DNA from: Octopus vulgaris
Taxonomy: Eukaryota
Assembly (NCBI GenBank): GCA_951406725.2
Contig: OX597816.1
Coordinates: forward strand, 27,280,001 to 27,344,000
Length of the DNA: 64,000 nucleotides
Direction: 5' to 3'
The translations under genes were made by a program, and so were the position numbers. Below the pieces are notes generated by a model. That model did no database searches. It was not told the origin of the DNA and was given only the letters and a program-made list of their open reading frames with translations. Positions 12,672-36,182 of the stretch are shown here, in pieces. Numbering within the stretch: position 1 is the first letter of the stretch; each line of letters starts with the position of its first letter.

Positions 12672-13246
12672 CATATGCCCTGATGCAGTACCAGGCAGTG
12701 GCTCTCATGGCTTCTGATCTTAACTGATTGGAAGTGTTATCATGTACATTGTTTTGTCTTGGTATAAAAGATGGGCTACAGCAAATATTCTGCTCAATAC
12801 CACATATTTGCTTGTCAGTTGTTTGACCTTAACCAGTTGACCAGGTCCCTTAGTGGCAGACGATATGTGCATCTCTGATCACAAGCAGAAGTAGTGGGGG
12901 AGCATCATAGCCATGTGCTGAAAGGAATTCTTAGAGGTTTGGATAATTCACCTTTGGAAACATGGGTGTTTTGTTCAACATCCTTAAACAACCCTTAATC
13001 AGGGACCTTTTGAGTGGGGTGGGTTACTCGACCAGAAGAAAATTCTAACTGGGCCTCACCTGCAAGGTCATGTGCTGTTTATCTTGATATGAGATCACCA
13101 TGTTGCGCACATATGGCTGTGATGCATGTGCCTAGTGTACCCTTATCAGATGGGTAGTCATGACGGATATGCTGGGCTTCATATATTGTACCCCAGTGTC
13201 ACTTTGAGGGCATGCACTGCTCTCTCACTCAGTCAATAATAAAAAT

Positions 13247-13288
<42 letters not shown>

Positions 13289-13290
13289 TG
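12672..13290 (+). mobile_element. Non-LTR retroelement 3' end with (AAT)n tail, inserted in an (AAT)n array
   Basis: A ~560-bp non-coding block bracketed by (AAT)n on both sides; family not determined. Confidence 0.5.
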
Positions 13291-13502
13291 TTTTTAATAT
13301 AGATAGATAATTATGAATATTATCACTCTTGTGTCCACATTCTTCTTGCTAGTTCTCTCATTTTACAGGCAATGCATTTTACAACCAGAAAAATATCTAT
13401 TATTGAGGCAAAATTCAAAAACTATAAAAGGTAAGGCAAAAGTATAAAGTATGATTAAAATGTAAGTTCTGTAAACTGACAAAACATAATTATATCTGCT
13501 TT

Positions 13503-13706
13503 ACTGTTTACTGTTTTACTTGTTTCAGTCATTTGACTGCGGCCATGCTGGAGCACTGCCTTTAGTCGACCAAATTGACCCCAGGACTTATTCTATTGAT
13601 CTCTTTTGCTGAACCGCTAAGTTACGGGGACGTAAACACACCAGCATCTGTTGTCAAGCGATGCCGGGGGTCAAACACAGACACACAAACACATACACAC
13701 ATACAT

Positions 13707-13761
<55 letters not shown>

Positions 13762-13959
13762 TACATATATATATATATATACATATATATATACATATAT
13801 ATGACGAGCTTCTTTCAGTTTCCGTCTACCAAATCCACTCACAAGGTTTTGGTCGGCCCGAGGCTATAGTAGAAGACACTTGCCCAAGGTGCTACGCAGT
13901 GGGACTGAACCCAGAACCATGTGGTTAGTAAGCAACCTACATACCACACAACCACTCCT
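13503..13959 (-). mobile_element. tRNA-derived SINE family A (dominant repeat, probably one of the octopus OK/OR SINEs)
   Basis: Head GGCGCAGGAGTGGCTGTGTGGTAAG (A box)..GGTTCAGTCCC (B box), CORE-like CCTTGGGCAAGTG, internal (TA/TG)n and tail GACTGAAACAAGTAAAAGAGTA. Other approximate copies: 1911-2070(+), 5550-5765(+), 15399-15811(-), 17972-18380(+), 18832-19215(+), 20589-21030(-), 21650-22064(-), 22395-22790(+), 31431-31845(+), 32283-32660(-), 36669-37128(+), 40052-40430(+), 42117-42535(-), 46654-47066(-), 48110-48522(-), 49548-49940(+), 55972-56515(+), 60254-60660(+), 63207-63624(-). Confidence 0.9.
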
Positions 13960-14599
13960 GAACTCAAAGCAAAGGAGAAAAAGATGCCAGTCAGAAAGCA
14001 GTACAGGAAACGTGAGTTGATCAGTTTGAGGCAAAAGTGGTCTGATCTAGTTTACATTTTTGAGAAACACCCAACACCTCACAGATCAGGCTTCAGATGT
14101 GCTTGATGCCATCATGACAAACTAAGAATCAGACAACCAGCTTGGTGATGTCTTGGTGTTATCATATAGAATCTTGCAACTGTATCCGGTGTCTTCCTTG
14201 CAGTCATTTGCTGCCTTTGATCACCCAGACATGATGATTAGGAAAATGATAGAAAGACAAACAGAAGAATGACTAAAATAGCTATGTAAAAAATTTTAAA
14301 TATATTACCAAAACCAAAAGCAAGTTTTATAAAATCTTTAATATGTTTTTAACAAATTTGGAAGTGAATTTTTGTTCTAGTGATATTCAAATGCAAATAA
14401 TCATGCAAAGTTTAAAATTTTTCCTATAATTAATTTGGCAATGGTGAATTTTTAATGTCTAATAACATAATGTTATCAAATTTTACTATATTTTCATATT
14501 TTTTGAATAAGTCGTTCAAAACAAAGTGTTGTTTTGAAAAATTATTAAAATCTTAAAATTTAAATAAAATCTATATATTATAATTTCTGCATAAATAGC

Positions 14600-15306
14600 A
14601 CGGCATGATGTAGTTTAGGAGGAAATTTACCATCTTTTTGAAACAATATTGTCACTTATTACATTAAAACTTTTCTCTCTTTTTTTTAAAACTAAGGATG
14701 TAAAATAACCTACCATTGAAGATAAGTCCTCTGGGAACAATTGCAGCTTATACAGGGGGTCCCTAAAGTCTGGACACCTAAGAAATCTCAAGCATCGAGG
14801 CCATTTTTCTTTGATGAACACGTAAACTGGTGAGACTTACCTCACCATGTCGAGAGACTAGTTAATGCCCCAACTTGAAAGGCTAAGTGAAGGACTTCTT
14901 GAGTGGTTCCAACAGGATGGTGCCGCTGCCCATTTTGCCATGGTGGTAAGAGATTGGCTGAATGACAATTTCCCTGACCAGATCGGAAGACATAGTCATG
15001 TGGAGTGGCCTTCTTGCCTTTCTTGACTTCTTTCTCTGGGGTATGCTAAAGGAGAAAGTGTACTCAACGAAAATCACAGATGCAATGAAAATCAAAGATG
15101 GAACACATAAAGATTGAGCGTGTTCAGATTGATGGCAGTGTGGAGATATTGCATCAAGTTCACATAAATCTTGCAAATGGTGGAAATCATATTGAAGATG
15201 TTATTTGTTAATATTCTAATCGATTAAAATGTTGCTGAAAATTTTACATGTATTTCTTGAAAATATACATTTTGCCTATGTATCCAAACTTTATGGACAC
15301 CCTGTA
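14600..15306 (+). mobile_element. Tc1/IS630-like transposon remnant
   Basis: GPFFFDE..YLTM..WFQQDGAAAHFAMVVRDWLNDNFP..DFFLWG..KEKVY; terminal GGACACCCTG|TA. Confidence 0.8.
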
Positions 15307-15599
15307 GAGTAAAGATAGTACTAAATACTTGTTGCTGTTTTAGAATTAAAGTTCATTATATCACATTTAATTCTTTATTTCCCTTCATAATTTATATCTT
15401 ACTCTTTTACTCTTTTACTTGTTTCAGTCATTTGACTGCGGCCATGCTGGAGCACCGCCTTTAGTCGAGCAAATCGACCCAGGGACTTATTCTTTGTAAG
15501 CCCAGTACTTATTCTATCGTTTTTTTTTGCTGAACCGCTAAGTGACGGGGACGTAAACACACCAGCATTGGTTGTCAAGCAATGATAGGGGGACAAACA

Positions 15600-15641
<42 letters not shown>

Positions 15642-15905
15642 CATATATACGACAGGCTTCTTTTCAGTTTCCGTCTACCAAATCCACTCACAAGGCATTG
15701 GTCGGCCCGGGGCTATAGCTATACTTGCCCAAGGTGCCACGTAGTGGAACTGAACCCGGAACCATGTGGTTGGTTAGCAAGGTACTTACCACACAGCCAC
15801 TCCTGCGCCTATGAAATCCATTCATTTGTAGAACATGATATTTAAAATGAGAAGGAAATCTACTGTTCAGTATTTTCTGAATAAGTTTCACAATTTTTTT
15901 TTTAA

Positions 15906-16135
15906 TAAACCCTTTAGTGTTTAAACCGGCCCATATCAGGCCAAAATTGTCTTCCTGTTTTATGCTCAAACCAGCCAACTCTGACCTCTCACACCTACCC
16001 TACAAAGTCATTCTAAAAATAAACAGGAACAACATCAAAATCTCAGAGTTACAAGATGCTGTACAATTAATTAAAAATAAATATGATTAAACAGATTTTA
16101 CATTTGAGAGAGTAATCTGAATACCTAAGGGTTAA
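15906..16135. mobile_element. piggyBac-type MITE (degenerate)
   Basis: AACCCTTTAG ... CTAAGGGTTAA ends. Confidence 0.55.
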
Positions 16136-16329
16136 AGCAATAGTTGTTAAAAGCAAAGATTTAAATTACTGAGAAGCAATGATAGGATTCAAAATCAGTC
16201 TTTTATTTTAGTGGAAATTCTGTTTATTTCCACATCTAGGTGTGGAGTAACAGTCGCAAATGTCTTCGTTTAATCTTTGACAATTAATATGATGCATTTT
16301 TATGTACCTAACATTATCAATAGGAATAA

Positions 16330-16610
16330 ATAAAATTTTTTTTCTAAAATCAAAGTCTTGAATACTAAGAATTCTCTTTCCAAATTTCATGAACACATTT
16401 CTGATGCCATCATCAAATCTTCCTCGAATAATTCTTAGACTAGCCACATTATTGTATTTATTCAAAATAATGGTTTTTTTTTTTGATTAACTTCATTTTC
16501 AAGTCTCTCAGTTTATAATTATTCAATAAATCCAGGCAATTGATTAATAACTTAAATCATAGAACTTGTAAACAAGCATTTCTTAGGTTTAATGGTGGAA
16601 GTTGTGAAAT
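16330..16610 (-). pseudogene. Ubiquitin-specific protease (peptidase C19)-like domain remnant at the 3' end of the RepHel frame
   Basis: With one 1-nt frameshift the sequence reads NLRNAC(F)TSSMI*VINQLPGF, matching the USP Cys box NLGNTCYMNSVLQxLxxxPxF in exact spacing (catalytic TGT at 16574-16572). A downstream FDDG.QKCVHE resembles the QQDAxEF box. No His box was found. Confidence 0.65.
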
Positions 16611-16943
16611 AATATTTGCTTTATCATTCTAATTTTGTTCTATATATTCTTCAATATTTAATTTTTAACTCTCTTCTGAGGTATACTAGGTGCAATATCC
16701 ATGCAAAGAGGTTTTTTTTTTTTCTGCAAGGTGGTATCAGAAACAAATCTGGTTTTTTGAGTAATGACACACAATTTGTTGTACTCTTCCCATGCAAATT
16801 TGTCACACAATTTGCAAACTTTTGAAAGTAAGCACAGTAAGTAAAATCCCTATCTGGCAACTGGAAGGAAAGCTGTCCTCTCAACAAATATCCTGCTGTT
16901 GGTATAGCTGGATGACAAGCTCTGGTGATGATGTTATTCTTTC

Positions 16944-17359
16944 AGATCTTTTCGGTTTGAACGGCAGTTTTCAACATAATTTCTAGGTAACTAAAAAATT
17001 TTAAACTTCGTATACTGGTAGAATGTGTTTATAAAACATCTTTTTCTCTTGGCTTTATTGAGAAAATTTTATAGTTTGTAAGATATTTGTTGTTTTTTTC
17101 CTTCAATTTCTGCAATTTCAACCAATCAATTACGTCTATTGAGGTAAATACCATTCTGTGCCGTATGAATATGTCTCTCGTTTAAGAAACAGATTGGGTT
17201 TATTTACATTTGTGAAGAAAAAAAGATACCCTCCCCCCCAACCCTAACCCTAACACTAAAACAGATTGAAATGCAATAGATCTATGCTAGGGTCATAATT
17301 ATGGGTGACAATTTCATATGACACCACTAGAAAAACTGCTGTTCAAACCGAAAAGATCC
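16944..17359. mobile_element. Same MITE family, copy 2, nested in an RTE 3' fragment (~16867-17465) that itself interrupts the helicase
   Basis: Perfect TSD attctttc. The flanks translate as the RTE C-terminus RKTWVKQIEANL..RDQKE. Confidence 0.9.
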
Positions 17360-19720
17360 ATTCTTTCTGATCTCTGGTGCTGGCCTTAGCATGCTTGAGG
17401 ATGAGATGTTGCGACTTCAGGTTTGCCTCAATTTGTTTTACCCATGTCTTTCTTTGGTGTGCTGCCCTGGAATCTATATAAACCATGCAATCAGAAAATA
17501 GAGATCTTTGGTTTATAATCATCCCATTGACACTGATTCCTTGTGAATTGTTATTACATCAAAGAGAGTGTGGAAAATGATTCCTGGTGACAAAAATACC
17601 ATCAATAATTTCATAATCAGCTTGCTAATATAAGAGACTTGTTTTGTTTGTGGTCAAAAGCAATATTTTCAATATGATTCTTTCCTCCTGTTCTAATGGT
17701 CCTTTCTACAATAGGTACAAGGCTTGAAATTTTGGTGGAGGGGTGTAGTCATCTGCATCAACCTAGTGTTTCACTGGTACTTAATTTATCAACCCTGAAA
17801 GGATGAAAGGCAAAGTTGACCATGGCAGAATTTGAACTCAGAATGTAATGTGGGATGAAATCCAATACGTATTTCATCCAGCATGCTAATGATTTTACCA
17901 CCTCGATGCTGTCCTCTTGTTCTAATAATGCTATTACAAAAGTTTTGGTCTACATCATACTTTTTCTTCAACAGGCGCAGGAGTGGCTGTGTGGTAAGTA
18001 GCTTGCTAACCAACCACATGGTTCCGGGTTCAGTCCCACTGCGTGGCACCTTGGGAAAGTGTCTTCTGCTATAGCCCCGGGCCGACCAATGCCTTGTGAG
18101 TGGATTTGGTAGGCGGAAACTGAAAGAAGCCCGTTGTATATATGTATATATATATGTGTGTGTGTGTATGTTTGTGTGTCTGTGTTTGTCCCCCTAGTAT
18201 TGCTTGACAACTGATGCTGGTGTGTTTACATCCCCGTTACTTAGCGGTTCGGCAAAAGAGACCGATAGAATAAGTACTGGGCTTACAAAAGAATAAGTCC
18301 CGGGGTCGAGTTGCTTGATTAAAGGCTGTGCTCCAGCATGGCCGCAGTCAAATGACTGAAACAAGTAAAAGAGTAAAAGTGAGAGAGAGTCCCAATTTTC
18401 AGCAAAGTGTCTAGTCCAGTCAAAAAATGAGTAAAAATTTAAAATTTAAACAAAGTCTATATTTCCTTAAGTGTATTGCTGATTTTACTATTTTCCTTTC
18501 ACCTCCCATCTTTTTGTCACATGCCAGAATCTGGCTATAATATTAATAGTCATGATATCACATTTTTTTAAAAAAACCATTTCATTATTTAGTTCATCTA
18601 CTGCTTCACTTAGAAGAAGTATGCTAAGAAATTTCAAATCAGGTGTAAAATACAATTCAAATAATTTATCAGCAATTTCTTCAGTAGCTGTTTTTCTATT
18701 TGGAAATAGCATTGTCTTTGAAGAATGCTTTTATCAGAATCCATGGATTAACAGCTTTAATTCTTCCTTATATTTTACTGTAATTTTCTTTGTCTTATGT
18801 TTATATAAGTTCATCAGATCAAAAATATGTCCACAGGAGTGGCTGTGTGGAAAGTAGCTTGCTTACCAACCATATGGTTCCGGGTTCAGTCCCATTGCGT
18901 GGCACCTTGGGCAAGTGTCTTCTACTATAGCCTCGGATCGACCAAAGCCTTGTGAGTGGATTTGGTAGATGGAAACTGAAAGAAGCCCGTTGTATATATG
19001 TATATGTTTGTGTGTCTGTGTTTGTCCTCCCAACATCGCTTGACAACCGATGCTGGTGTGTTTACGTCCCCGTTACTTAGCGGTTTGGCAAGAGAGACCG
19101 ATAGAATAAGTACTAGGCTTACAAAGAATAAGCCCTTGGGTCGATTTGCTCAACTAAAGGCGGTGCTCCAGCATGGTTGCAGTCAAATGACTGAAACAAA
19201 TAAAAGAATAAAAGAAAAAATGGTTCTCTACTAATATCAATTTTTGTTCATTTGGAATCATATGAAATTCTTTGAATACTGGGTTTGCATTAACAGGTGG
19301 AAGTTGCAATGAATCACCAAACAAAAGGTTAGTCTATTCTGATCTTCAAAGATCTCATGTTGTATTTTGTAAATAAAAGTCAGCATCAAATAATTGATCA
19401 TACTGATTGCATCAATAGTAAATAGTCTGATCTCATCATCAAATAGCTTGCAACGTTTTCACTTTTTTTGTCAGTTCTCTCAAGTAGGAAATTTTCTTTG
19501 TTGAACACTAATCTTAAGTATTCTCTGCAAAGTATTGCCTTTATTTGAAAAGCACTTATGCCAGTGAACCTACAAATTATTATAGGAGACCAACTGCATG
19601 AATCAGACATGAAATTTTGTCTGATGTGGTGTCTATCAAAAAACTTTTTGGAGTTCCTCATATACCAGAAATGAATTTAAGCAGCTATGGGTACCACGTT
19701 TACATCTTGGAATTGGTTTG

Positions 19721-20144
19721 GGATCTTTTCGATTTGAACGGCAGTTTTCAACATAATTTCTAGGTAACTAAAAAATTTTAAACTTCGTATATTGGTAGAA
19801 TGTGTTTATAAAACATCTTTTTCTCTTAGCTTTATTGAGAAAATTCTATAGTTTGTAAGATATTTGTTGTTCTTTTTTCTTCAATTTCTGCAATTTCAAC
19901 CAATCAATGACGTCTATTGAGGTAAAAAAAACATTCTGTGCTGTATGAATATGTCCCTTGTTTAAGAAACAGATTGGGTTTATTTACATTTGTGAAGCAA
20001 AAAAGATACCCTTCCCCCTAACCCTAACTAACCCTAACCCTAAAATAGATTGAAATGCAATAGATCGATACTAGGGTCATAATTATGGGTGACAATTTCA
20101 TATGACACCGCTAGAAAAAACTGCCGTTCAAACCGAAAAGATCC
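19721..20144. mobile_element. Same MITE family, copy 3
   Basis: TSD ttggtttg/taggtttg; internal (CCCTAA)n. Confidence 0.9.
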
Positions 20145-20805
20145 TAGGTTTGTTCTTATTTCAATGAAGCTCTTCCAATAATACTAATAACTTCATTAAA
20201 AACTGTTTTTTGGTCTTCATTCAGCTGAAACTCCTTTTTGTCTTACAAATTCTTCAGTAACTTTTCTTTCAATTTTCTTTGCTTAATTTTCAAAAATATT
20301 TTTCCCCACCTTCTTTTTCTTCTTTGATTTCTAATTGTTTTACTAATTCATGGTTCAACCACATGTTTTTTTTAATATTTTCATACTGACTGAGTAACTA
20401 AATAGAAAATCAACATTATAATTCTTAAGTGATTCTTCATATGAATAAGAACCATTAACAAAATCAATTTCACTCTTTTTCCTAGATATAAACAACATTA
20501 ACAAATCATGTAAGTTTTGTTTTGTTTCTTTCAGTGAAATATTTGGAACATTGATTATTTTTCCCCTTGACCTTTGTTATTGACCAATACTCTTTACTCT
20601 CTTTTACTTGTTTCAGTCATTTGACTGCGGCCATGCTGGAGCACCGCCTCTAGTCGAGCAAATCGACCCCGAGACTTATTCTTTGTAAGCCCAGTACTCA
20701 TTCTATCGGTCTCTTTTGCCGAACCGCTAAGTGACGGGGACGTAAACACACCAGCATCGGTTGTCAAGCAATGGTAGGGGGACAGACACAGACACACAAA
20801 CACAT

Positions 20806-20865
<60 letters not shown>

Positions 20866-21863
20866 GACAGGCTTCTTTCAGTTTCCGTCTACCAAATCCA
20901 CTCACAAGGCTTTGGTCGACCCGGGGCTATAGCAGAAGACATTTGCCCAAGATGCCACGCAGTGGGACTGAACCCGCAACCATGTGGTTGGTTAGCAAGC
21001 TACTTACCACACAGCCACTCCCGCGCCTATGTTCACTTTTTCAGCTTCATTTTCATCACCTGCTGCAAGCTGATGCATTTTCTTATTGGCTGGCAACTTC
21101 ATATAATGAAACATTTCTCAGAAATACTGGTATGTTTGAATGATATGTTTCATTCATATTTTTATAAAGGATGCTTGTAGTTAGTAGTGAAAGTTCTTGT
21201 AATTCCAGTTTGGTCTCAACTTGTGACTCCTTTTACTAGGCGTATCAGCACCCACCCAATTTACTTGATCAGCTTTGTCAGCTTTGTCATCATTATAAAA
21301 CAGATGCTGAATGTTTCTTCTAAATCTTGGTTCTAGATGAAGTCAATTTTTAATATACATTTAAGGTTTTACTGTCCCATATGGTCTATTCTTGAATTTT
21401 ACAAATTTCTCTTCAGGGAATAAAACTGAGATGCACAATTATTCTAAATTAGGATTTTCATCTTTGATTAATGTTCCTGTGATTGTAAGTATTTTATAAA
21501 TCTCAATGTCTTTTTGTTTAGCAATGAATGTTAAATGCTGATGAATGCATGGTATATTCTTACAACTGTATGATGTTCATAAACATTTTCAGTGTCTATT
21601 TGAATTAGCAAAGGATCAGTATCATTTGAAATATTTTGTCTCTCTCTCTTTACTTTACTCTTTTACTTGTTTTAGTCATGTAACTGTGGCCATGCTGGAG
21701 CATTGCCTTTAGTCGAGCAAATCAACCCCAGGACTTACTCTTTGTAAGCTTAGTACTTATTCTATCGGTCTCTTTTACCTGAACCACTAAGTTATGGGGA
21801 TGTAAACACACCAGCATCGGTTGTCAAGTGATGTTGGGGGAACAAACACAGACACACAAACGT

Positions 21864-21894
<31 letters not shown>

Positions 21895-23689
21895 CATATA
21901 TACGACAGGATTCAGTTTTTGTCTACCAAGTCCATTCACAAGGCTTTGGTTGGCCCAAGGCTATAGTAGAAGACACTTGCCCAAGGTGCCACACAATGGG
22001 ACTGAACCCGGAACTATGTGGTTCGTAAGCAAGCTACTTACCACACAGCCACTCCTATGCCTATGTACCAATGTCATATAAATCCTTAGACACATTTGTT
22101 TTTTTCTTTGTGAAGTTCATTATTTGTTTCAAGCCAATTGAGTGCATGAAAAATATTTTTCATGTTTGTCAAGATCCTTAAATGATTTTCTTTCTCAATA
22201 ATTCTAATATTTGCATCTTCTTAATACATCTAGGTAGGTTCAGATGCAAAATATGCTGGTTGCTGTATTGTACATCATAGAAGATCAGCTGGTCCCTTTT
22301 ATGATGACAGTGTGTTCAAAACACCCAACTTATTGCTACTTGGCATTCTGGGACACCAGTGTCTCAACATGTTGAATCTTGTCAACCAAAAGTAACCGTG
22401 TGGTAAGTAGCTTGCTAACCAACCACATGGTTCCGGGTTCAGTCTCATTGTGTGGCATCTTGGGCAAGTGTCTTCTGCTATAGCCCCGGGCCGACCAATG
22501 CCTTGTGAGTGGATTTGGTAGACGGAAACTGAAAGAAGCCTGTCGTATATATGTATATATATGTATGTGTGTGTGTTTGTGTGTCTGTGTTTGTCCCCCT
22601 AGCATCGCTTGACAACCGATGCTGGTGTGTTTACGTCCCCGTCACTTAGCGGTTCGGCAAAAAGAGACCGATACAATAAGTACTGGGCTAACAAAGAATA
22701 AGTCCTGGGGTAGATTTGCTCGACTAAAGGCGGTGCTCCAACATGGCCACAGTCAAATGACTGAAACAAGTAAATGAATAAATGAAAGAAAAGAACTCTA
22801 AACTTTGTTTATACTTTTGTAATCTTTAATAAAATATGAAGATTTGTTAACAATGTTGGCCTTAGAATAGTCCTCTTCTATTTCATGCAATTCATGAATT
22901 TTTAAAGAACTTTTTACATCAAGAACTTCAAAAATAGCAGTGTCATATAAATGCATACAGCTCTTAATCTGTACACAGAGGTCACAAATATTCTAAGTCT
23001 TGGGCTCTGGAAAGCCATTGTTTTAATGAATTCAAGTGAATTGGTGAAATAGGAATGACTAACCAATAAAAATAATCACTCTGAATGGCAGATTTTTCAT
23101 TTTTTGCACATTCCCAAACCAATTAAACTTGTAAAATTTCATTAATTGAGTTATGAATTTCTCTAGTTTCAATGTCACACAGATGCCTCAATTTTCTTTC
23201 AAACTTGGATTTTTCAGTTTCTTTTTCTTGTCCATCGTTTTCCTCTCAATAACAATAACCTATTTACTTTTCATCATCAGATGGAGCATTTTTATACTCA
23301 CAATCATCAGAGAGACAGTCAACACTGGCAAAATCATGGTTGCTCAAAACATGTAGTGCTACATAATTTACAGAATTTGTAGGGAAAAAGTACTATTCTT
23401 TTACTAATGAACAACTGTTATACAAAAATATGGTACAAATTTTCATTGGCAAAAGTTTGGTACAAATTTTGACTCCAATAAACTGACAACAAACCTTGAA
23501 TCTTTTCGGTTTGAACTGCAGTTTTTTTCTAGCGGCATCATATGAAATTGTCACCCATAATTATGACCCTAGTATTGATCTATTGCAAAAGAAGAAATAA
23601 AGATAGACTTTTTTTCTATTCTAAAGAAAAACGATTTCCCATGGCTTTATCGATCGTATCCTCCCCAATAATCTAAGAGCAGTATGCAT

Positions 23690-24960
23690 TGTTATTTCTC
23701 AAACTTCATCAGAAATTTAGGATTTGATGGTAAGCTCTGATAAAAATCAATCCTTGCAAAATATTTCATACCTGACAGTATTTGTAATGCCATCTCAATG
23801 TTTCATGTAATTAAGGGTTAGAACACATCTGGAATTACTCTTATCTTGTAATTGACACAAATATGTACATCACCATGGGGTTCATGCTCCATGGCTATCA
23901 CTGCAGCTTACTTACCCTTTCCAGGTTCCATTATCTGGCATTTTCCTTAATTTTGCTACAACATGGGGATAAATATGTACAGCATTATTTTTAAAATTCA
24001 GTTTCAACTTTATAATCTTTTAAGCAGCTAATATAATCAGATTGCGTGTGATGAAGAAATGACATACTATTGCATCGCAATACATCCATTCTATTAAGAT
24101 AATACCTTTTATAAATAAAAGTGACAATTATGGAAGCTAAATCATTACTAATGTGTCCCCAATATGGTTTCAAACTTTCCCAAGTGATTGATTACTAAAC
24201 CATCGAACTGATTGAGAGTGGCATTGAAAATTCCATATTGGGAGATCCTAAATTCATTCAGAAAGTCTTTGATAAGATATTGATTTCAAATTTTGGTGCA
24301 AGGCTAATAATTTTGGGTGAGGAGCTAAGTCAATTACACTGACCCCAGTGTTTAACTGGTACTTATTTTATCGACCTAGAAAGGATGAAAGGTAAAGTCG
24401 ACATCAGTGGAATTTGAACTCAGAATGTGGAAACAGATGAAATGCCACAAAGCATTTTGCCCAGCATGTTAACAATTCTGCCAGCTTGCCACCTTAAGTC
24501 TTAGGCAAGATATTAGCATCACTGCCAGTGTCCACTTGCATCTACACATCAATATCCTTTAATTTAATGGAGGTCAATGAAGTAGAATCACTGTTCTCAA
24601 TGTTGAAGAAATTACTTGTTTCTTAATTACCAGTACAACTTGAAAATGCCTTCCAAGAAGACTGAAAATGGTTCTTCTCATAGATATTTTATGTCTTTCC
24701 AAAAGCAGGAGACTTATATTATTGGTGTAGCCACAAAACTTACATGTAACCTTTTTCTTGTGCACATGTGACACAGACAATTCTTTTAACATACTAACAT
24801 TATCACGAGAAGCATTTTCTGAAATTGAATGTTCAAATATTTCAGAGCAACATGCAGAATTTCATAGTGTATCAATTTAGTTGCAATTGATCATCTTCAG
24901 CATATCAAATTCATAAAAATGTGAATTTTCTTTCAATCATCACCATCACATGCATAGAGC
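23690..24960 (-). mobile_element. Ty3/Gypsy LTR-retrotransposon gag-pol remnant
   Basis: CKFCG knuckle-like motif (~24745), protease MQVDTGSDANILP (~24545-24505), and RT HGDVHICVNYK..LSGMKYFARIDF..AYHQI (~23880-23720). Interrupted by a SINE at ~24282-24495. Confidence 0.8.
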
Positions 24961-26480
24961 TGTCAAATTTAATAGCTGGTCCCTTTGTTGAGACAGTATC
25001 TCTTCCAGATCTTTTCGGTTTGAACGGCAGTTTTTAACATAATTTCTTGGTAACTAAAAAATTTTAAACTTCGTATACTGGTAGAATGTGTTTATAAAAC
25101 ATCTTTTTCTCTTGGCTTTATTGAGAAAATTCTATAGTTTGTAAGATATTTGTTGTTTTTTTTCTTCAATTTCAACCAATCAGTGACGTCTATTGAGGTA
25201 AAAAACATTCTGTGCCATATGAATATGTCCCTCGTTTAAGAAACAGATTGGGTTTATTTACATTTGGGAAGAAAAAAAGATACCCTTCCCCCACCCCTAA
25301 CCCTAACCCTAACTTACCCTAACCCTAAAAGAGATTGAAATGCAATAGATTGATTCTAGGGTCATAATTATGGGTGACAATTTCATATGACACCGCTAGA
25401 AAAAACGGCTGTTCAAACTGAAAAGATCCTCTCTTCCTCCTACATATTTTCCACATTTATCATCTCTCATAATGTCATTTTCAAGCCTCTTTCCAATCAT
25501 CATTGATGAGAGTAAGAGTGCCACCCATTTTAAACACTTTTTCCCAACTACGTCTTCATTTACTCTAGTATACTGCTTTGCAATATCTCATGCCTATGAA
25601 CCTTTCATTACTGAACACTATTAAGGTGGTGAGCTGGCAGAAACAGTATGTTGAAGTGCTTAGCGGTATTTCACCTGTCGATACGTTCTGAGTTTAAATT
25701 CTGCCAAGGTCGACTTTGCCTTTCATCCTTTCGGGGTCGATAAATTAAGTACCAGTTTGCGTACTGGGGTCGATTAAATCGACTGCCCCCTCCCAAATTT
25801 CCAGCCTTGTACCTATAGTAGAAAGGATTACTGAACATTATCAAAGCTCTTGCTTTCTGCTTGTTTTCAAGCAATGCTCACTTGTCACATGATGTAGTTC
25901 TTTGCTACTCACTTTCTTCTAGCCTTTCCTTACTTGTCTTTGTTTTTATTGCTTCATCCACAGTGCTAGCCCACCATCATGCTATCGTATATCTGGCACA
26001 AAATTGGTTTGCAGCTTGCATTGTGTTAACTCCAAGGAGGAGAGGAAAACCCTTTGAAACATTAAAAGTTCCTTTCTCCTCCTCCTTTTTGTCATATGCA
26101 CTTTCCAGAATTGCCCTGAGCATTTATTTATCTCAATGATGTTTCAGTCACCACACTTTTCTTCTTCATAATGTCTCTCAGCCCATCTGTTTTTTATTCT
26201 AAAATCTGAAGTTAGCCTGTGTTAAGGTGAGCATTCTTAACTGAAGAAGACCTTGGTATTTATAGCTATCTACTTAATCCATTTCCTGGTGAGAATGAAA
26301 TCTATTTCACGTCATGTTAATCTGACTGGAAGGTGATTAAATGGCAGGTTGGTTCCCTGAAGTTCATGTTGCAGATAGTTCCTTTGTATCACAAACTTCT
26401 TGAAGTCTTGATACCATAATCATAACCACCACGTACTTCTGAGAAGCTCTCATGCCCATTAAAATCCCCAACCAGAAAAA
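24960..26480 (-). mobile_element. RTE-clade LINE ORF remnant (endonuclease and linker)
   Basis: TICNMNFREPTCHLITFQS (~26380-26325), IAKQYTRVNEDVVGKKC and KEA*K*HYER (~25590-25460). Split by a MITE and a SINE. Confidence 0.7.
25007..25429. mobile_element. Same MITE family, copy 4
   Basis: Perfect TSD tctcttcc; internal (CCCTAA)n. Confidence 0.9.
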
Positions 26481-29947: not shown

Positions 29948-30641
29948 CTACAAGTTCGGTAGATTCACTAGCGGGACGCAAATATCACGTGTTAGATCAC
30001 ATTTCAGATAACTAGAACCGCAGTTTGGTTGAGATCTTGAGCAAGAAGGTGTTGGTGCACATTGGTAGAAATTATGTGAGAAGTATTCATGCACAGCATG
30101 TCGTACTAGCAACCAACCAAATCCAATTTGCGAATTTGGAGCATGCGTCTGTTTGCCGTAAGAAAAGAAAGGATAGTCGCTACTGGGGTCAATATCATGC
30201 ATTCGCTGCTTGGTACGGAATTTCTCCCAAATGCAGTCAATATATGCATGGTGCATCCAAAACATTGGGTCATAACACGCTGATTCTACTTTACCCATTT
30301 GCCCACCGACCCATGTGTGAACATGGTTGTGCATTTTCTCAATATTTGTCCAGTTCGGAGCATGTGGGTACGTAATGTCTTCTAAATAAAAACGCAACAT
30401 AACGTTTCTCTCGTCTCTGGTTGTCATCAGCCGGTTTACACGTCCAAAATTGCGATGTAAGGGTCCATGCGGTGTAAACCATCCTGCAAAAGGACCAACT
30501 GTGACCAGTCCACGACCATTTCCAATAAAATGGTCTGAAAATATTGAAGATTGAGTCGGGTCAAACAAACTGTTATCAAGAGTATTATTCCAGTATGGAA
30601 TGTTAATACCAGGAATTATTTGGTTCAGTGCGTTTTCTAGC
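29948..30641 (-). CDS. tyr: Tyrosinase coding exon 3 (PYW motif, CuB site, Cys-rich C-terminal tail)
   Basis: Acceptor tttccctctag at 30642+; the phase-2 join CT+G gives Leu and WHRIYLILLENALNQIIPGINIPYW. CuB motifs are IEKMHNHVH and YDPMFWMHHAYID, followed by a Cys-rich tail CAPTPSC..CGSSYLKC..C. Stop TAG at 29950-29948; the spliced protein is 337 aa. Confidence 0.95.
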
Positions 30642-30738
30642 CTAGAGGGAAACAAAGAAAGAGAGAAAATTTAACCGATTGTTGTGTTAGGAAAGAACCA
30701 ATAATACGTGGGTTGTTAATACACAAATATATACAGAA

Positions 30739-34515: not shown

Positions 34516-36182
34516 CTAGCAGTATCGCCCGGCGTTGCTCGGGTTTGTAAGGGAAATAACTATATAAGCATTTTTAGTGAGTTATAGCAAAAAAATAGCA
34601 AAAAAATGCACTAAAAATGGAATAAAAAATTATGGTAATTTTTTTTTAAATCATTGACTCATCGTAGACATTTTTAGAGAGTTACTTCCCTTATATAATA
34701 GCGAAAAAATGCATTAAAATGGAAAAAATTATGGTAAATTTTTTTTAAATCGTAGACTCATCGTAGACTCGCGCTAATATCCAGAAGGGCTCGATATGAA
34801 TCACGACTATAAGATACCCAGTTTTGGTTAAACTGCACCGCAAAATGTGGGAGTAGTTAGGAATCTAAATCGTAGGAGACAGACACACAACCTCTCTTTT
34901 ATATATAAAGATTTGTGCAACAACTAAAAAATTCGGTTGTGCATATTGTTTGCACAGGAAACCTGCCCTGTGTGGCGGTTTTTGCCGTTTTTGTGGATCT
35001 GTTTCAGCTTTTTTAGCGATTTCTGTTTTGGCGACTTCAAGCCATGAAGTCGTTGTTCTAAAAGAACGCTGGTCTCCTTGACAACGCTTTACGACGTTAA
35101 TTTCCCTACCCTGCCTTCCCCACAGCTTCACGAGGGAGAGAAGAAGGGGAGGAGCTACACAGGTGCAGGTGCGAGCATGAACGCCAACGCCGCCACCGAC
35201 ACACGAAAAAATTGGAAGAACCCAGACGACAGCTTCAGCCACCACCACCACCACCACCACTACCACCATGACCACCACCACCACCACTACCACCATGACC
35301 ACCACCACCACTACGCCCATGACCATCACCACCACCATCACCACCACCACCACGACCACCACGGCCACCACCATCATCACCACCACCACCACCACCACCA
35401 CCACAAACACGACGACCACCATCGCCACCACCCCCACCACCACGACCACGACCACGACCACCAACAACACCACCACCACCACCACCACAAACACGACGAC
35501 CACCATCACCACTACCAGCACCACCGCCACCACCGCTGCCACTACCACCGCCTCCACCACCACCATAATATGCCTCTGCTCTCTCCTTTTGGCTACTAAA
35601 TCCATTACCATATTTCACAAAGTATCATCGCCATACAATATTGCCTTCAAAAGTTTGTGTTTGGATAATATTTTTTAAGTAAAAGTTGTGCAACAACTAA
35701 AACATTCGGTTGTGCAAATTCTTTGCATGGGAAACCTTCCCTGTGTGGCGTGTTTCCCGATTTTGTAGAATTTGCTTTCGGGCTTTCCTAGCCTTTTCTG
35801 TTTTGGTGTCTTCAAGCCATGAAGTCGTTGTTCTTAAAGAACGCTGGTCTCCTTGACAACGCTTTACGACGTTGATTTCCTTACACTCCCTTCCCCAGAG
35901 CTTCACGAGGGAGGGAAGAAGGGGGAGAAGCAACACAGGTGCAGGTGTGAGCGTGGACGCCAACTCCGCCGCCATCGACACACGAAAAAATTGGAAGAAA
36001 GGGAAAAAAATGATGTTAAATTATTTTTAAAATCGTAGACTCATCGTAGACGCGCGCTAATACACAGACGGGCTCGATATGAATCACGACTATAAGATAC
36101 CCGAATTTGGTTAAACTGAACCGCAAAATGTGGGAGTAGTTAGGAATCTAAATCGTAGGAGACAGACACTCACACAACTTCA

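Follow-up and report, generated by a model that had tools for sequence, protein, structure and literature searches.

A probable dead HLE2-type Helitron remnant with a broken ubiquitin-specific protease domain directly behind its PIF1 helicase

Results

We analysed a 64,000-nucleotide (nt) window of Octopus vulgaris DNA (GenBank contig OX597816.1, positions 27,280,001 to 27,344,000; coordinates below count from the first base of the window). Its minus strand holds remnants of a RepHel protein of the HLE2 type (Helentron/Helitron2 group) from about 22240 to 16772, with the Rep core gone, followed by a broken ubiquitin-specific protease (USP) domain running from 16616 to at least 15345, with a candidate His box at about 14750-14640. 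A first-pass annotation, made by a model from the letters alone, had placed a Helitron-like PIF1 helicase followed by a USP in 16200..20230. That interval proved too narrow on both sides: the USP reaches 15345, perhaps 14640, and RepHel remnants extend upstream to about 22240.

As references for the RepHel part, we used 120 metagenome loci fetched by a DUF6570-type motif from 22 of the 64 parts of the collection. Fourteen long HLE2 open reading frames (ORFs) were scanned; 13 carry DUF6570, 11 PIF1, three OTU, three Herpes_teg_N, two an endonuclease and none UCH. The helicase test was a frameshift-aware alignment of a profile of 14 HLE2 RepHel ORFs to the window, with inserts skipped. L010 is one of the scanned ORFs, and P0001 is a 244-residue protein described below. 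The remnants are listed in their order on the minus strand.

22104..22237, minus: DUF6570-like remnant of HLE2-type RepHel (40.3 bits; shuffle maximum 24.5)
21295..21459, minus: remnant of the region immediately preceding Helitron_like_N (25.3 bits; shuffle maximum 21.7, 40 shuffles)
20577..21294, minus: where the lost Rep core, with its HUH and Tyr motifs, would lie; now a SINE-like (short interspersed nuclear element) insert and 267 unique bases
20421..20576, minus: remnant of the pre-helicase RepHel segment (25.5 bits; shuffle maximum 22.4)
18575..20344, minus: N-half of the PIF1 helicase, from motifs I, Ia, II and III on; damaged, and interrupted by two inserts
17476..17615, minus: PIF1 helicase motifs V to the start of VI; in frame with the tail once 16836-17475 is skipped
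16772..16835, minus: last part of motif VI plus the helicase tail, which closes with EEYNKL, from the L010 alignment
16590..16771, minus: Lys-rich linker from helicase tail to Cys box, 182 nt, with a run of 13 A
16151..16616, minus: USP N-part with Cys box, QQC box and first Cys/His cluster, from the P0001 alignment
15820..15858, minus: USP continuation after an insert (8/13 identities to P0001 residues 210-222)
15345..15374, minus: next USP piece, past a second insert, reaching the final residue of P0001 (8/10 identities)
14642..14750, minus: candidate His-box remnant, past a mariner-like insert; the His position (14707-14705) reads Tyr

The Helitron-type PIF1 helicase proposed for this strand was borne out. 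Its N-half (20344-18755, motifs I-III) scored 86.5 bits with the profile, while 40 shuffles did not exceed 20.3, and the best of 14 single helicases, L071, aligned with 76/231 identities and a score of 136 (shuffle maximum 46, 20 shuffles); the N-half carries six frameshifts and five stops. The C-end (17615-17476 joined to 16835-16772, covering motifs V-VI and the EEYNKL ending) aligned to L010 in one frame with 26/68 identities and a score of 92.5, which none of 100 shuffles reached. Another join around the LINE-like (long interspersed nuclear element) insert scored lower and required two frameshifts, and was rejected. The helicase tail alone narrowly ranked first of 912 pieces (42 versus 40), its profile score not rising above shuffles, and the 2B part between N-half and C-end stayed at background (13.4 versus a shuffle mean of 13.7). 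A word-indexed protein search with the helicase frame found no relative among 77 candidates. In line with the check suggested in the first-pass annotation, a frameshift-aware search with the inserts removed recovered both helicase and USP, while single-frame Pfam scans missed both (PIF1 or UCH in 0 of 24 raw window frames at E<=1).

Upstream of the helicase, the DUF6570-like remnant sits at its expected place without a direct Pfam match; its score is inflated, since that motif had also served to select the reference ORFs. The remnant at 21295..21459 ranked first of 212 window pieces (next 23.7), and that at 20421..20576 had its best place among 212 pieces by a small margin. A by-eye match just after the remnant at the start of Helitron_N was discarded, as 17 of 100 shuffles reached it. 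For the Rep core, 484 profile columns were expected where 267 unique bases are present, and no match rose above background in 126 window pieces. Together with the helicase, the four RepHel remnants lie on one strand in the order seen in intact HLE2 ORFs.

Behind the helicase, a phmmer search with the frame 16879-16150 against 1.84 billion protein representatives returned two matches at E<=0.001. One, P0002 (E 6e-4), is an unrelated repeat protein and was dropped. The other, P0001 (244 residues, E 4.9e-11), is the only good relative of the window USP in that set; it matches Pfam UCH (PF00443) with E 3.2e-8 and 33.9 bits, above the curated cut-off of 23.9, and it is through P0001 that the window segment is assigned, by sequence likeness, to the USP (peptidase C19) family. 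P0001 residues 23-181 aligned to 16616-16151 with 54/156 identities and a score of 206 (shuffle maximum 49, 100 shuffles), in agreement with the earlier placing of a USP/C19-type domain right behind the helicase. Within these 466 nt there are four frameshifts and five stops, and the linker adds a frameshift and a stop; the claim that the Cys box needs one 1-nt frameshift thus understated the damage.

The Cys-box part lay outside the stretch that retrieved P0001. Aligned alone, it scored 53, a value reached by 0/300 shuffles and 0/266 other window pieces; its Asn codon is at 16589-16587, and the catalytic Cys codon (16574-16572) is intact. Against an independent profile of 55 giant-virus USP ORFs, it was reached by 0/200 shuffles and ranked first of 850 by a thin margin in a local test, and ranked 24 of 1590 in an end-to-end test. 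The two continuations had been faint in the initial search (E 0.36 for 15820..15858 and 1.1 for 15345..15374); when tested singly, neither was matched by any of 500 shuffles or by other pieces (0/1108 and 0/684, respectively). Overall, the window USP follows P0001 collinearly up to that protein's final residue, without intron-sized gaps, at 84/216 identities. The only other relative found, P0004, has 74 residues, is 65% like P0001 and matches Pfam UCH below the cut-off (E 0.008). Each of the two forms a single-member, unnamed cluster. In Atlas features P0001 lies at 0.93 to UCH clusters, the nearest being giant-virus USPs, and no P0001 relatives were found in viral contigs. A single-sequence AlphaFold model of P0001 was unusable (mean predicted local distance difference test score 38).

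The two relatives clarified how the catalytic boxes are to be read. The first-pass annotation had explained the key departures of the Cys box from the canonical motif as single-base changes; Asn>Ser and Gln>stop fit both relatives, and the GGA>AGA reading is unsupported, because P0001 has Asn and P0004 has Lys where that reading assumes an original Gly. USPs usually carry QQD. The suggested QQD-like box is indeed present, yet both P0001 and P0004 read QQC at this place, so the Cys in the window box is native. A His/Cys cluster common to P0001 (H132, C136, C144, C146 and C152; residues 130-152) and window 16300-16230 (minus) exceeds one Cys pair and is possibly a putative additional zinc site. 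P0001 stops short of the His box, and the segment at 14750-14642 is a His-box candidate only: a local profile test did not lift it above shuffles (13.4 versus a mean of about 12), a second end-to-end test with other settings ranked it 5 of 1581 and 14 of 1585, and Pfam matched it in 0/3 frames. About 100 nt past the candidate lies a perfect 10-bp hairpin with a 4-nt loop (14515-14538), which may be a 3' palindrome of the element or a chance product of AT-rich DNA.

We then considered the junction between the two domains. After the helicase, the linker is open for 37 codons and then takes, on the shortest path, one frameshift and one stop; its 182 nt are not a multiple of three. Damage in the linker is no denser than in the flanking domains, and it therefore neither shows nor excludes fusion. 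The linker has no repeat cover, and in all four runs compared over 16060-17700 at 80% likeness it lies on the same contig as the helicase tail and the USP N-part; no join skipping the USP occurred in these runs. USP and helicase share the strand and a similar level of damage (four frameshifts and five stops versus six and five in the N-half). In keeping with the earlier suggestion that the USP takes the place of the endonuclease, no apurinic (AP) endonuclease remnant behind the helicase rose above shuffles (two endonuclease tails scored 31 and 38, reached by 23/30 and 11/30 shuffles), and no OTU remnant was found there.

The reference loci show what else can occupy this place. L010 (1408-8205, plus) and L023 (4104-9857, minus), two of the 14 scanned, are intact HLE2 RepHel ORFs with an in-frame OTU behind the helicase and without an endonuclease; their terminal, fused OTU shows that a deubiquitinase can stand where other elements have the endonuclease. 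In L018 and L021 an endonuclease stands behind the helicase, where the window has its USP. The Herpes_teg_N domain lies N-terminal to Rep in L021, L055 and L069. In L033 (3998-7207, plus), the HLE2 helicase is followed by a 380-residue tail without a Pfam family; this tail was examined as a USP and rejected, as it has no USP likeness.

To assess the state of the copy, we compared it with other sequence data. Two independent runs contain the window stretch with four and five differences, and since they agree, the breaks are real rather than assembly errors. The orthologous stretch of a second species, organism E, differs at 56 and 54 positions over about 800 bases (runs X11 and X19). The drift count used 35 of the 56 X11 differences: of 38 listed, three present in X11 but not in X19 were dropped, and insertions and deletions were left out. 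Six of the 29 changed codons in organism E are synonymous, against a share of 0.28 expected under neutrality, and two new stops appear; four of the five window stops have no listed change there. Given the near-neutral synonymous share, the new stops and the four unchanged ones, the death of the element most likely predates the split of the two species. As a pseudogene, the window copy makes no protein able to act.

Eleven inserts lie within the element between 14750 and 22100: five SINE-like, two MITE-like (miniature inverted-repeat transposable element), one LINE-like, one mariner-like, one high-copy repeat and one of 210 nt. Class labels are tentative and in part given by eye. No strand is assigned.

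14751..15306: mariner-like insert (inferred label); terminal inverted repeats of 35 nt and TA ends, from the inverted-repeat search
15386..15815: SINE-like repeat (tentative label) inside the USP; the window has up to 20 matches to it
15916..16132: high-copy repeat within the USP, missing here in organism E; shown by depth and by loose ends at 16132-16136
16836..17475: insert interrupting motif VI, multi-copy and by eye LINE-like, from repeat matches; holds the MITE-like element 16945-17359
17700..17910: insert with a 15-nt near-direct repeat at its flanks, from repeat analysis
17973..18401: SINE-like repeat inside the helicase, from repeat matches
18832..19220: SINE-like repeat inside the helicase, from repeat matches
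19722..20144: MITE-like repeat, 93% like 16945-17359, from repeat matches
20587..21037: SINE-like repeat, from repeat matches
21627..22067: SINE-like repeat, from repeat matches

The organism E contig diverges from the window beyond 16132. Other contigs cover 16836-16939 and 17357-17475 while skipping the MITE-like element. In organisms A and B, inserts 16945-17359 and 15916-16132 are far more abundant or are present at these places; organism E appears to lack them there, which makes them younger than the dead element.

The window is AT-rich and crowded with repeats of about 420 bases. No Rfam family was found in 13000-25000. Directly upstream of the Helitron remnant, at about 23700-24560 (minus), broken aspartic-protease and reverse-transcriptase motifs of a long terminal repeat retrotransposon are visible by eye; single frames have no Pfam match. 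An open frame at 29948-30670 (minus) has a tyrosinase domain (Pfam E 2.5e-22) and is likely a host-gene exon. A tblastn match at 35242-35583 fell in low-complexity DNA and was discarded.

Discussion

The stretch combines homologous pieces in the order of an HLE2 element, heavy damage and neutral drift, and holds no remnants of a Rep core, an endonuclease or an OTU. We regard it as likely that this is a dead, internally deleted HLE2-type remnant, and that the broken PIF1 helicase, the 182 nt and the broken USP belonged to the same element. Because the Rep core with its HUH and Tyr motifs is missing, the element is classed as a deleted derivative and not as an autonomous HLE2 member.

Several results weigh against this view, or against its fused form. 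The four runs contained no second copy of the element at 80% likeness over 16060-17700, so the other family members that the first-pass annotation had hoped to compare did not appear. Inverted-repeat searches within 13900-15400 and within 22800-25000, each taken separately, did not find the element ends, which a single copy does not allow to be fixed by comparison. Autonomous HLE2 elements are bounded by subterminal inverted repeats and a 3' palindrome and insert at TT. An intact helicase-USP relative was absent from 361 longer P0001 candidates, from 299 candidates of near length (which held only P0001 and the 74-residue P0004) and from 1127 ORFs of the 120 HLE2-motif loci. P0001 and P0004 are themselves known as proteins alone. 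On the protease side, the whole USP did not exceed shuffles with the giant-virus USP profile (23.2 versus a maximum of 24.5, 60 shuffles), the window's own frames gave no Pfam UCH (0 of 24), three of its frames gave no Protein Data Bank (PDB) USP, and P0001 itself matched no USP in the PDB. Finally, the available text of the HELIANO study (Li et al., NAR 2024, PMC11417382) places UCH in an ORF different from RepHel, and the preprint agrees.

The USP could instead have arrived behind a dead Helitron helicase by a separate insertion, as a retrocopy of a host USP or as a piece of a virus or other mobile element. The region readily takes inserts, as the eleven show, the linker is not open, and the Atlas clusters nearest P0001 are giant-virus USPs (0.93), a likeness that is not a sign of transfer. 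We nevertheless consider this unlikely: helicase and USP share a strand and are 182 nt apart, with similar damage, no repeat cover between them and no USP-skipping join in the four runs, and the same place holds an OTU in L010 and L023 and an endonuclease in L018 and L021. Moreover, the frame retrieved just two matches, the divergent P0001 and an unrelated protein; that no ordinary animal USP was among them argues against the copying of a conserved host gene.

A carrier other than a Helitron, for instance a Polinton-like element or a large DNA virus that had integrated, would account for the absence of the Rep core that defines rolling-circle elements, and compact USPs do occur in giant viruses (55 ORFs). 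However, the remnants before the helicase follow the order of HLE2 RepHel and are top-ranked of 212 pieces, P0001 has no relatives in viral contigs, and the DUF6570 motif occurs in 0 viral stretches; such a carrier is therefore very improbable. Lower still do we rate a domesticated, working host gene whose breaks are introns or assembly errors. The intact catalytic Cys codon would fit it, yet the breaks are confirmed by both independent runs (four and five differences), the sequence drifts neutrally with extra stops in organism E, and the His position reads Tyr, so that this explanation is already largely refuted.

If helicase and USP do belong to one element, was the ancestral USP a C-terminal domain of RepHel or an ORF of its own? 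The first-pass annotation had proposed a helicase-deubiquitinase fusion. The adjacency it relied on holds; the linker of this copy needs a frameshift and holds a stop, no intact relative was found, and the HELIANO text points to a separate ORF. We find a fused ancestor somewhat more likely than a separate ORF. More tentatively, and at less than even confidence, we propose an invertebrate HLE2 lineage in which a highly divergent USP family (QQC for QQD, plus a further conserved and possibly zinc-binding His/Cys cluster) was fused to the RepHel C-terminus, so that the end of RepHel would be an exchangeable slot for an endonuclease, an OTU or a USP.

The pairing of an HLE2 helicase with UCH is already known and not new, contrary to the novelty that had been thought possible. 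In the accessible portion of the HELIANO paper (PMC11417382), UCH is among 20 captured domains, is found almost only in HLE2 and is enriched in subgroups c and d; the endonuclease is enriched in subgroup b and is not the usual cargo of c and d, and DUF6570 upstream of Rep marks HLE2. Like the UCH-bearing c and d elements described there, the window has an HLE2-type RepHel with a candidate DUF6570 remnant, a UCH-type (PF00443) domain close by and no endonuclease remnant behind the helicase. Unlike them (mostly lungfish and axolotl, with a separate UCH ORF in that text), it has a host that looks invertebrate and a USP 182 nt behind the helicase, maybe fused. The same text places OTU upstream of RepHel, whereas L010 and L023 carry it behind the helicase.

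Other Helitrons provide further comparisons. OTU-bearing HLE2 elements, a cargo covered along with the Helentron definition and end structures in the consulted part of PMC4067079, also carry a cysteine-protease deubiquitinase, which L010 and L023 have as an in-frame domain after the helicase, with no endonuclease; these elements differ in having an OTU where the window has a USP. A Helentron in the strict sense, with the AP endonuclease fused to RepHel, shares the HLE2-type RepHel and PIF1, and the window lacks the endonuclease remnant. In zebrafish Helentrons, as far as the available text of PMC9741609 (Nat Commun 2022) goes, three VTD (Herpes_teg_N) domains cleave K48 and K63 ubiquitin chains, and the authors propose that VTD protects from the proteasome; protection of RepHel from turnover, as suggested in the first-pass annotation, has thus already been proposed for Helitron VTD deubiquitinases. 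The window USP resembles VTD as a Helitron-borne deubiquitinase with the same proposed guarding of transposition proteins. VTD is a protease of another class, sits in endonuclease-bearing elements and has demonstrated activity (PMC9741609, same extract). We found no report of a fused or assayed Helitron USP among titles and abstract openings, in a search without most subscription journals, Repbase and Dfam.

The ancestor would have been an autonomous HLE2 element with an active, intron-less, divergent USP behind the helicase, presumably expressed together with RepHel, either fused to it or as the next ORF. By analogy with the VTD work (PMC9741609, available text), the USP may have acted on RepHel, or on host proteins where transposition takes place, by stripping off their ubiquitin chains, and would thereby have filled the deubiquitinase slot that VTD and OTU hold in other HLE2 elements.

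The copy itself is an ordinary fossil. Its worth lies in adding a host lineage for UCH-bearing HLE2 elements and in pointing to a sparse, unnamed USP family (P0001 and P0004). If intact members proved to be fused to RepHel and active, USP would be the third deubiquitinase class in these elements after VTD and OTU, and why transposons need one would become testable. Were the fused-slot proposal true, ubiquitin removal near the transposase would be a general need of rolling-circle transposition.

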